Sequence record: MK629529.1
Length of the DNA: 5,494 bases
Origin: Escherichia phage Lilleto
Direction: 5' to 3' (one strand)
The first letter of the stretch is position 1. Each line of letters starts with the position of its first letter. The translations under genes and the position numbers were made by a program. Below the pieces are notes generated by a model. That model worked only from the letters and a program-made list of their open reading frames with translations. It did no database searches and was not told the origin of the DNA. This document shows, in pieces, positions 1,715-3,761 of this stretch.

Positions 1715-1892
1715 GGCTGATGCCCTTGACGAGGAAAAATGGCTTAACATGCTGGGCGCTCTTCTTAAGGACTGGTTCCGCTACGAAGAACATTTCGTAC
1801 ATGGCAAACAATCTTTAGTTGACATATTAATCGAACGGGGGTTACTATCCCCCACACAAACAACCCGTAACAACAAAGGAAATACCAAATGA
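1632..1892 (+). CDS. C: Protein C (DNA maturation / switch to single-strand synthesis)
   Basis: 86 aa from ATG 1632 ([23 protein letters not shown]...), very similar to phiX174 C. ATG overlaps the A stop as ATGA (1632-1635); stop TGA 1890-1892 overlaps the D start as ATGA. The track's 1614 start is a GTG extension; the ATG is preferred. Confidence 0.9.
1819..1848 (+). promoter_or_regulatory. Candidate promoter P_D inside gene C
   Basis: TTGACA at 1819-1824, 18-nt spacer, TACTAT at 1843-1848, about 40 nt upstream of gene D. phiX174 has a similar TTGACA...TTACTAT arrangement upstream of D (from memory). Confidence 0.45.
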
Positions 1893-2344
1893 ACTCCAAC
1901 GAATCTGCTGTAGCCTTTCAAACTGCAATCGCTTCTATCAAAATGATTCAAGCCTCATCCGTCCTCGACCTTACCGAAGACGACTTCGAATTCTTAACTG
2001 GCGACCGTGTCTGGATTGCTACTGACCGCTCCCGCGCCCGCCGTGCTGTCGAGGCTTGTGTATATGGAACACTGGACTTTGTCGGGTATCCTCGCTTTCC
2101 TGCTCCTGTTGAGTTTATTTCTGCTGTTATCGCTTACTACGTTCATCCGGTCAACACCCAGACCGCTTGTCTCATCATGGAAGGAGCCGAATTTACTGAA
2201 AACATCGTCAATGGCGTTGAATCCCCAGTTAAGGCTTCCGAACTCTTCGCTTTCGTTCTCCGTGTCCGCGCTGGCTGTAAAGACGTCCTCGAAGGTGCCG
2301 AAGACAACATCCGCGCTAAACTCCGTGCACAAGGAATCATGTAA
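1889..2344 (+). CDS. D: External scaffolding protein D
   Basis: 151-aa ORF, near-identical over long stretches to phiX174 D (e.g. WIATDRSRARR.VEACVYGTLDFVGYPRFPAPVEFI). AAAGGA at 1874-1879 upstream of ATG 1889. Stop TAA 2342-2344 overlaps the J start as TAATG. Confidence 0.95.
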   Translation: MNSNESAVAFQTAIASIKMIQASSVLDLTEDDFEFLTGDRVWIATDRSRARRAVEACVYGTLDFVGYPRFPAPVEFISAVIAYYVHPVNTQTACLIMEGAEFTENIVNGVESPVKASELFAFVLRVRAGCKDVLEGAEDNIRAKLRAQGIM

Positions 2345-2351
2345 TGGCTAA
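2064..2351 (+). CDS. E: Lysis protein E (MraY inhibitor), overprinted in the +1 frame of gene D
   Basis: 95 aa from ATG 2064 (MEHWTLSGILAFLLLLSLFLLLSL...); N-terminal hydrophobic domain with the W4/LAFLLLLSL signature of phiX174 E. GAGG at 2051-2054 upstream. Stop TAA 2349-2351. The track ORF 2007..2351 is the same frame with an upstream alternative start. Confidence 0.85.
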   Translation: MEHWTLSGILAFLLLLSLFLLLSLTTFIRSTPRPLVSSWKEPNLLKTSSMALNPQLRLPNSSLSFSVSALAVKTSSKVPKTTSALNSVHKESCNG

Positions 2352-2430
2352 AGGCAAATCATATCGCCGCGGCTCTGCTGGCAACAAAAAAGGCTCCCGC
2401 CTCTGGTACGTTGGCGGCTCACAATTCTAA
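2344..2430 (+). CDS. J: Small basic DNA-binding/packaging protein J
   Basis: Hand-translated: MAKGKSYRRGSAGNKKGSRLWYVGGSQF, 28 aa, stop TAA 2428-2430. Basic N-terminus and the conserved ARLWYVGG.QF-type C-terminus of J proteins. AAGGAA at 2331-2336 upstream. Confidence 0.8.
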   Translation: MAKGKSYRRGSAGNKKGSRLWYVGGSQF

Positions 2431-2474: not shown

Positions 2475-3761
2475 ATGTCTAATGTTCAAACTTCTGCCTC
2501 TCGTGATGCAATTGATTTATCACATCTGGTCTTCAACACTGGCGCTATTGGTCGCCTTAAAGTCGCATCATGGACCCCTGTTATCGCTGGTGATTCTTTC
2601 CAGCTTGACGCTGTTGGTGCTTTACGCTTATCCCCTCTGCGTCGCGGCTTGGCTATTGACTCAACTGTTGATTACTTCACTTTCTACATTCCACACCGTC
2701 ATATCTATGGCGATGCATGGATTCAATTTATGAAAACTGGTGTCGCTGCCACTTCTCTTAACCCTGTAACTACTGGCGAATACGTTGATAGCGCCTCTTA
2801 TCTTGGTGTAATCCCTTCTGCTGATGGCAAGGTTCCCAAGTTCCTGCACCAAGGCTATCTCAATATTTACAATAACTACTTCAAAGCCCCTTGGATGGCT
2901 GACCGTACTGAGGCAAACCCCTCCAACTTAAACGACGACGACCGTCGTCACGGCTTCCGCTGCTGCCATCTAAAAAACATCTGGTCCGCACCTCTTCCTC
3001 CTCAAACGGAAATCACTCGCGCTATGACTACTGGCGCTACTTCTATTGATATTATGGGTCTGCAAGCTGCTTACGCCCAACTTCACACTGATCAAGAACG
3101 TGACTACTTTATGCAGCGTTACCGTGACGTAATCTCTTCGTTCGGTGGCAAAACTCACTATGACGCTGATAATCGTCCTCTTCTGCTTATGCGCTCTAAC
3201 TTCTGGGCTTCTGGCTATGATATCGACGGCACTGACCAAACTTCATTAGGTCAATTCTCTGGCCGCGTCCAGCAAACATTCCGTCACTCTGTTCCTCGCT
3301 TCTTCGTACCGGAACACGGCGTTATTATGACTCTTCAGCTCGTACGCTTCCCGCCTACCTGCACTGAGGAAACTCACTATCTCGTCGGCAAAGGCGCACT
3401 AAACTATACTGACCTTGCGGGTGATCCAACTCTTTACGGTAACTTACCGCCTCGCGAAATCGAAATGAAAACTCTCTTCCGTGGCGCTGCTGGCTCTACT
3501 GAAAAAATCAAAATTGCCGAAGGGCAATGGTATCGCTATCATCCTTCTTACGTTGATGGACAATATCACAACCTTCAAGGCTTCCCGTTCATCCAAAATG
3601 GTCCAACTGGCAACATGGAAAACCGTGTACTGATTGACCATAAAAAATACGACGAATGCTTCCAATCACTCCAATTAACTCACTGGAATGCCCAGGCTAA
3701 ATACAATGTCACTGTATATCGACATATCCCGACCACACGTGATAGCATCATGACTTCTTAA
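2475..3761 (+). CDS. F: Major capsid protein F
   Basis: 428-aa ORF with high similarity throughout to phiX174 F (e.g. GALRLSPLRRGLAIDSTVD, HTDQERDYFMQRYRDVISSFGGKT, TTRDSIMTS terminus). AAGGA at 2464-2468 upstream of ATG 2475. Stop TAA 3759-3761. Confidence 0.97.
   Translation: MSNVQTSASRDAIDLSHLVFNTGAIGRLKVASWTPVIAGDSFQLDAVGALRLSPLRRGLAIDSTVDYFTFYIPHRHIYGDAWIQFMKTGVAATSLNPVTTGEYVDSASYLGVIPSADGKVPKFLHQGYLNIYNNYFKAPWMADRTEANPSNLNDDDRRHGFRCCHLKNIWSAPLPPQTEITRAMTTGATSIDIMGLQAAYAQLHTDQERDYFMQRYRDVISSFGGKTHYDADNRPLLLMRSNFWASGYDIDGTDQTSLGQFSGRVQQTFRHSVPRFFVPEHGVIMTLQLVRFPPTCTEETHYLVGKGALNYTDLAGDPTLYGNLPPREIEMKTLFRGAAGSTEKIKIAEGQWYRYHPSYVDGQYHNLQGFPFIQNGPTGNMENRVLIDHKKYDECFQSLQLTHWNAQAKYNVTVYRHIPTTRDSIMTS

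Follow-up and report, generated by a model that had tools for sequence, protein, structure and literature searches.

The open reading frame at positions 2344–2430 of the Escherichia phage Lilleto genome (MK629529.1) is very probably gene J of an already known group of Bullavirinae coliphages, the Lilledu group, encoding a protein of the short J class and not a step towards the 38-residue form of phiX174. Its 28 residues would reflect a lineage-specific difference of two codons (Gly4-Lys5) at the flexible N-terminus when compared with the 26-residue J protein of phage PJNS002. The biological weight of the length itself is small, J being a textbook protein whose sequence was already contained in six deposited genomes.

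Gene J and Its Junctions with Neighboring Genes

The whole stretch of DNA that was analyzed (5,494 nucleotides, referred to as the window) is a complete Bullavirinae (phiX174-like) genome in which the open reading frames follow the gene order A(A*/B/K)-C-D(E)-J-F-G-H. Translation of gene J (2344–2430, plus strand) yields a small DNA-binding/packaging (core) protein of 28 amino acids (MAKGKSYRRGSAGNKKGSRLWYVGGSQF) and bears out the initial reading of a 28-residue J with an LWYVGG core at this position. The ATG at 2344 is the first start codon after an in-frame stop, and no second methionine occurs inside the open reading frame. Gene J sits between D and F on the same strand and abuts the stop codon of D, an order that is shared with phiX174, G4, alpha3, and ID2. 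The upstream gene D (external scaffolding protein, 1889–2344, plus strand) is annotated in the relatives, and its product displays 83–89% amino acid identity to the D proteins of ID2 and G4. The downstream gene F (2475–3761, plus strand) encodes the major capsid protein of 428 amino acids, the expected binding partner of the J C-terminus, with 79% amino acid identity to the F protein of PJNS002. The lysis gene E (2064–2351, plus strand; 95 amino acids, MEHWTLSGILAFLLLLSL...) is embedded in D as part of an open reading frame at 2007–2351 with a methionine codon at 2064, and a tblastn comparison of this region with ID2, G4, ID12, and PJNS002 shows 49–61% identity.

The stop codon of D (TAA, 2342–2344), the start codon of J (ATG, 2344–2346), and the stop codon of E (TAA, 2349–2351) form a three-gene junction at 2342–2351 on the plus strand. 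The D stop and J start codons overlap as TAATG, and the same arrangement is annotated in phiX174 and ID2. Gene E extends beyond the D stop and 8 nucleotides into J, so that three genes end or start inside 10 nucleotides, and the E stop codon comes from codons 2–3 of J (GCT AAA). The TAATG overlap is kept in all clade members except Lilleen, where it is broken at 2342–2352 by a 6-nucleotide insertion (AATATT) between the D stop and the J ATG that leaves the J protein unchanged. A Shine–Dalgarno-like AAGGA motif is located at 2331–2335 (plus strand) within the 3′ end of D, 8 nucleotides upstream of the J ATG, and is a candidate ribosome-binding site for J. Its AAGG core is invariant in an alignment of nine genomes (the window clade, PJNS002, ID2, and phiX174).

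Gene J Is a Genuine Coding Gene That Annotations Miss

The 28-residue J is confirmed as real and lies far beyond a chance open reading frame. The protein matches the Pfam family Microvir_J (PF04726) with 36.2 bits (gathering cut-off 30, E=9.3e-9) over its full length, with residues 1–28 aligned to positions 1–29 of the 29-position profile, and its PHROG matches are “DNA condensation” families. A comparison with all PDB sequences returned five hits only, every one of them a virion J chain: the best match is the J protein of PJNS002 (9k3n_J, E=4.7e-11) and the others are alpha3 (1m06_J), G4 (1gff_3), and phiX174-type chains (36cq_A/9k3m and 1rb8_J/2bpa). The protein contains seven Lys/Arg and no Asp/Glu residues and is organized into a basic N-terminal part followed by a hydrophobic/aromatic C-terminal tail of the RLWYVGGxQF/Y type, within which R19–G25 is invariant in eight aligned J proteins. 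Among the seven genomes of the clade, nine nucleotides of the J gene are variable, all of which are synonymous third-position changes (0 nonsynonymous). With ~20 synonymous and ~64 nonsynonymous sites open to change, the chance of this outcome under random changes is, by our own arithmetic, roughly (20/84)^9 or ~1e-6. The J open reading frame is thus under strong purifying selection.

The GenBank records of the six relatives of the window (Lilledu, lillemer, Lilleput, Lilleen, MG1, and SECphi17) and of PJNS002 all lack a J annotation. The records concerned are MK791318, MN850599, MK629525, MK629526, OR702609, LT960607, and PQ479935. Furthermore, a collection of ~15 billion predicted proteins does not contain the exact 28-residue protein, and a 5.5-kb contig supplies its only 26-residue PJNS002-type J, under the name “hypothetical protein [Salmonella enterica]”. 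Both gaps could be read as a sign that the open reading frame is unexpressed or starts elsewhere, a reading to which we assign a negligible probability in view of the purifying selection, the full-length Pfam match, and the conserved Shine–Dalgarno motif and TAATG junction. In addition, the homologous 26-residue product is seen in the PJNS002 virion even though its gene is equally unannotated in GenBank, and genes B, K, E, and A* are likewise absent from the records of the six relatives. The missing annotation of gene J is better explained by the minimum length applied by gene callers, for which 90 nucleotides is a common default, since the J open reading frame spans 87 nucleotides including the stop codon. 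Taken together, the annotation and protein-collection gaps mean that automated pipelines miss an essential structural gene in the Lilledu group. The records of the relatives contain five to seven CDS each, with none in SECphi17, and lack J, B, K, E, and A* throughout. Gene F is annotated as split in lillemer, and in Lilleen the annotated F and G overlap around a ~150-nucleotide deletion relative to the window.

The 28-Residue J Is a Marker of an Already Known Clade

The J lengths on which the original prediction relied agree with the annotated records: 38 amino acids in phiX174 (annotated at 848–964), 24 in alpha3, and 25 in G4. The other annotated J proteins contain 24 (St-1), 25 (ID12), and 26 amino acids (ID2, ID18, and ID204), and the J protein of PJNS002 has 26 residues (MAKSYRRGSSGKKKGSRLWYVGGSQF). 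An exactly identical 28-residue J is encoded in six out of six relatives of the window: Lilledu (97.7% genome identity to the window), lillemer (97.6%), Lilleput (96.3%), Lilleen (96.1%), MG1 (95.5%), and SECphi17 (93.3%), all codon differences being synonymous. The J protein of the window is therefore an ordinary one. Denmark and China are the places of origin of the six genomes, apart from a sewage sample for which no country is given. A variant of the 28-residue J with the substitutions N14K and F28Y is found on a metagenomic contig (L110, OBLN01002562.1) whose best blastn segment is 89.9% identical to the window.

No 28-residue J was identified outside the Lilledu/SECphi17 group among the other Bullavirinae genomes sampled. 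Degenerate J-core patterns run against IMG/VR and JGI metagenomes recovered J genes of 24, 25, 26, and 28 amino acids only; with Arg coded as CGN, J genes with AGR arginine codons or an altered RLWYVGG core would escape. Neither scan contained a J of 29–37 amino acids except for two 37-residue alpha3-like open reading frames that were read from an upstream methionine. The QQF ending was left out of the JGI pattern on purpose so that phiX174 spike-in contamination would not be picked up. Of the 93 hits in IMG/VR, most were chance matches in large unrelated contigs, and a filter for a stop codon within five codons of the core removed them.

The original prediction held that the length may mark a distinct lineage, and named the common occurrence of identical 28-residue J proteins in a known clade as the finding that would speak against it. 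The first part stands insofar as every member of the Lilledu/SECphi17 group carries 28 residues, and the novelty of the lineage does not, since the identical protein occurs in six coliphages and isolates of the lineage are already published, the Danish isolates having been described as gequatroviruses related to SECphi17 (Olsen 2020, PMC7552041). The 28-residue length is a stable marker of this one known clade. Across the Bullavirinae, J length is usable as a quick lineage marker, with 24 residues in alpha3-like, 25–26 in G4-like phages and PJNS002, 28 in Lilledu-like, and 38 in phiX174-like genomes.

The Window J Belongs to the Short Class

The J proteins of G4 (25 residues), ID2 and ID18 (26), and alpha3 and St-1 (24) are 62–65% identical to the window J in global alignments. 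All of them share a single basic N-terminal stretch with 7–8 Lys/Arg, no acidic residues, the RLWYVGG core, and a gene position between D and F that is followed by a hairpin. The window J differs from the G4/ID2/alpha3-type proteins in being 2–4 residues longer at the N-terminus and in a Ser instead of an Ala before RLWYVGG, and it ends in SQF, as alpha3 does, and not in TQF or TQY. The stretch before the RLWYVGG core comprises 18 residues, two more than in the longest of the other short forms (14–16). The C-terminal 20 residues align with the phiX174 J at 70% identity, and the M-x-K-G-K N-terminus and the TAATG junction are shared with phiX174, whose J contains ~10 more residues including a proline-rich segment that the window J does not have. 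In the alignment, this difference appears as one 10-residue gap opposite phiX174 residues 6–15, the block that makes the phiX174 J long. In the phiX174-like phage PJNS001, the 12 additional N-terminal J residues are reported to traverse the β-barrel of a neighboring F protein (PMC12328618).

The two classes are separated by charge. The J proteins of the window, PJNS002, ID2, ID18, G4, and the metagenomic genome L095 contain seven basic residues each, those of alpha3 and of contig L110 (which carries Gly4-Lys5 and K14) contain eight, and that of phiX174 contains 12. At 60 J copies, this corresponds to 0.075–0.080 positive charges per nucleotide of the genome for the short forms and 0.134 for phiX174, which makes phiX174 the charge outlier among J proteins that otherwise stay at 7–8 basic residues. 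The window J lacks the features of the long two-domain phiX174-type J (two basic clusters, a proline-rich linker, ~37–38 residues, and ~12 basic residues), with no proline as compared with three in phiX174, and displays those of the short single-domain J of the G4/alpha3/ID2/PJNS002 type. The protein accordingly falls into the short single-basic-stretch class typified by these four phages.

The original prediction had described the 28-residue J as intermediate in length, which could be taken to mean an evolutionary or structural intermediate between the 38-residue two-domain J of phiX174 and the 24–25-residue J of G4 and alpha3. The number of residues does fall between the two classes, and the MAKGK N-terminus resembles the MSKGK of phiX174 with the single 10-residue gap directly after it. 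The protein is intermediate by residue count only: it carries seven basic residues and lacks both proline and a second basic stretch, its class is identical to that of the 25–26-residue forms, and it is just two residues longer than the J of its sister PJNS002. Moreover, the scans described above hold no true J of 29–37 residues, and short J proteins are found in all other lineages (alpha3-like, G4-like, PJNS002, and the deep-branching L095). An intermediate is largely refuted by this evidence, and we consider it very improbable. The long J is found in phiX174 in this study and, as reported, in its close relative PJNS001 (PMC12328618), and in no other lineage. Since the short J occurs in all other lineages, the long J is most simply an insertion in the phiX174 lineage, and the two extra residues of the window J most simply represent an independent small indel that would be unrelated to the long form.

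Comparison with PJNS002 and Predicted Role of J

The closest characterized J protein is that of PJNS002 (9K3N chain J), with 23 out of 25 aligned residues identical to the window J (phmmer). The two proteins share the SYRRGS...KKGSRLWYVGGSQF sequence, the seven basic residues, the gene position, and the conserved contact residues on F, and differ by the extra Gly4-Lys5 of the window J and the substitutions S10A and K12N (PJNS002 numbering). The hosts are also different (Escherichia coli K-12 for the window and Salmonella rough mutants for PJNS002), and the identity between the two genomes is no more than ~83%, over 86% of the length.

All 26 J residues were modelled in the 2.6 Å cryo-EM structure of the PJNS002 virion, in which Lys3, Arg7, Arg17, and Tyr20 of J contact the ssDNA and hold ordered nucleotides, and J forms hydrogen bonds with two neighboring F subunits in regions that include Asp14, Asp62, and Arg215 of F (PMC12328618). 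The equivalents of these contacts are conserved in the window (K3 or K5, R9, R19, and Y22 in J; Asp14, Asp62, and Arg215 in F). In the virion structures of homologues (9K3N, 1M06, 1GFF, and 2BPA/1RB8), 60 copies of J bind the ssDNA as well as the inner F surface. By homology, the window J would be a small, basic core protein coating the ssDNA as it is packaged. The N-terminal part of the protein, rich in Lys/Arg, is predicted to neutralize and order the DNA, and its conserved C-terminal RLWYVGGSQF tail to dock in a groove that F presents on its inner face. With one J copy per F subunit, the protein would tether the genome to the T=1 shell.

The Gly4-Lys5 Indel

The two-codon difference between the 28-residue J and the 26-residue J of PJNS002 is located at 2353–2358 (GGCAAA, plus strand; placement ambiguous by 3 nucleotides within AAA-GGC-AAA) in both the protein and the DNA alignments. 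It may represent an insertion in the window clade or a deletion in PJNS002. ID2 starts with MAKGS and phiX174 with MSKGK, which suggests that a KG(K) N-terminus may be ancestral and that PJNS002 may have lost the GGCAAA. The indel would lie at the flexible DNA-facing N-terminus, away from the tail that docks to F. Its effect is probably small, and it is assumed to be nearly neutral. A change from K to N at J position 14 was considered as a compensation for the extra Lys of Gly4-Lys5 and rejected as a rule, contig L110 carrying both Gly4-Lys5 and K14. With eight basic residues as a result of N14K, this contig also shows that the J charge is not strictly fixed at seven.

Congruence of F with Other Genes

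The original prediction had suggested that the J length may mark a recombinant and that J and F should be compared with the Bullavirinae clades for phylogenetic congruence, the premise being that J length co-varies with F interactions, which is reportedly derived from phiX174 J-swap genetics. The quartet (window clade, G4 group)|(phiX174, alpha3) is recovered in four-point bootstraps for A (1.00), C (0.91), D (0.95), F (0.86), and H (0.93), on corrected distances and few taxa, with moderate support and a short internal branch for F. Gene G is saturated (corrected distances 0.9–1.6, conflicting quartets) and uninformative on the topology. Overall, no discordance between F and the other genes was found, and PJNS002 is the nearest outgroup for J, F, A, and H.

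An acquisition of the J–F module by recombination from another Bullavirinae clade, with the odd J length as its footprint, would fit the F identities, which are higher to phiX174 (74%) and alpha3 (71%) than to the G4 group (67–69%; 67% to G4), whereas for A, C, and K the G4 group is closest (82–85% for A, as compared with 72% to phiX174, MAFFT alignment). However, the G4-group F is distant from every other F (corrected distances 0.42–0.49), so the higher raw identity to phiX174 reflects the long branch of the G4-group F and not a misplacement of the window. The F quartet is the same as that of A, C, D, and H, and PJNS002 is nearest for J and F as it is for A and H. The congruent quartets and the shared nearest outgroup provide no evidence that J or F entered from another clade.

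Two further points would favor an acquired module: transfer of F between clades is seen elsewhere, and the 44-nucleotide J–F spacer is 87% identical to that of G4 but 68% identical to that of Lilledu. The apparent exchange of the spacer goes no further than the J stop codon: in the final 60 nucleotides of J, the identity is 75% to G4 as compared with 98% to Lilledu, and the same 28-residue J is found with both spacer alleles. Overall, we regard a recombinant origin of the J–F module as highly unlikely. The transfer seen elsewhere concerns three alpha3-like IMG/VR genomes (L016, L101, and L103), in which A and C are 98% identical to those of alpha3 and F shows 80% identity to the G4-group F as compared with 67% to that of alpha3, a clear case of inter-clade capsid-gene transfer. 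Such transfer has reportedly been described for microvirid coliphages.

The J–F Spacer Hairpin

The J–F spacer (2431–2474, 44 nucleotides) contains a terminator-like hairpin, identified by a terminator scan at 2439–2463 on the plus strand (GTGGGACC-ACG-GGTCCCAC, with a T-rich tail), which has a perfect 8-bp stem and an RNA folding energy of −14.3 kcal/mol (z = −2.2). Phage phiX174 presumably has a terminator after J, on the basis of which the hairpin is a putative terminator. A hairpin is found at the same position in all Bullavirinae compared, with two alternative stem alleles: GTGGGACC-RCG-GGTCCCAC in the window, lillemer, Lilleput, Lilleen, and G4, and GGGGC-TTCG-GCCCC in Lilledu, SECphi17, contig L110, PJNS002, ID2, ID18, and phiX174. 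The stem of MG1 is a hybrid that contains an A.C mismatch. The alleles cut across clades, which suggests either the exchange of a terminator-sized cassette with G4 or convergence. The high identity of the window spacer to that of G4 (86.7%, as compared with 68% to the closest relative Lilledu) does not extend into its flanks, where the identity to G4 drops to 75% in the last 60 nucleotides of J and to 67% in the first 150 nucleotides of F. The spacer hairpin is the sole element that looks exchanged with G4. Both alleles occur with the identical 28-residue J, and this small exchange or convergence is therefore unrelated to J length.

A scenario in which Gly4-Lys5 is non-neutral, could retune the tethering of the genome to the capsid, and could be co-adapted with the divergent F of this clade is in our estimate improbable. 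The J–F hairpin may be a small cassette that was exchanged between G4 and some members of the clade. If Gly4-Lys5 did retune tethering, particle density, stability, or attachment could shift in this K-12-infecting lineage; swaps of the phiX174 J are said to affect these properties.

Genome Placement and Other Relatives

A placement of the window clade in the genus Gequatrovirus is possible. The A, C, D, F, and H quartets put the clade with the G4 group, and its A protein shows 82–85% identity to that group. The megablast identity is 79–81% over only 72–86% of the genome. Genus-level practice at the ICTV is set at ~70% intergenomic similarity. The relatives in the Lilledu group are unclassified within the Bullavirinae in the NCBI taxonomy, and a nucleotide similarity of 59–68% was reported for phages that were nonetheless called gequatroviruses (Olsen 2020, PMC7552041).

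The published assignment of PJNS002 (PQ479935) is Sinsheimervirus (PMC12328618). The A protein of this phage is 84–88% identical to those of the G4 group and of the window clade as compared with 70% to phiX174. The H protein alone leans towards phiX174, with 81% identity and a corrected distance of 0.21 as compared with 0.36 for the window, which hints at a mosaic H in PJNS002.

The uncultivated genome L095 (IMGVR_UViG_3300005306_000004, 5241 nucleotides) displays amino acid identities to the window of 57% (A), 54% (D), 68% (F), and 46% (H) and may represent an undescribed, deep-branching genus-level lineage of the Bullavirinae. Its J gene is located on the minus strand with a start near reverse-strand position 2985 and encodes a short J of 26 amino acids (MSKRTIRGTKGRKSGSRLWYVGGQQF), which ends in QQF as is otherwise found in phiX174. 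Within the window, positions 1–300 (the 5′ end of gene A) are the most divergent relative to all close relatives, with 91–95% identity as compared with 97–100% over most of A.
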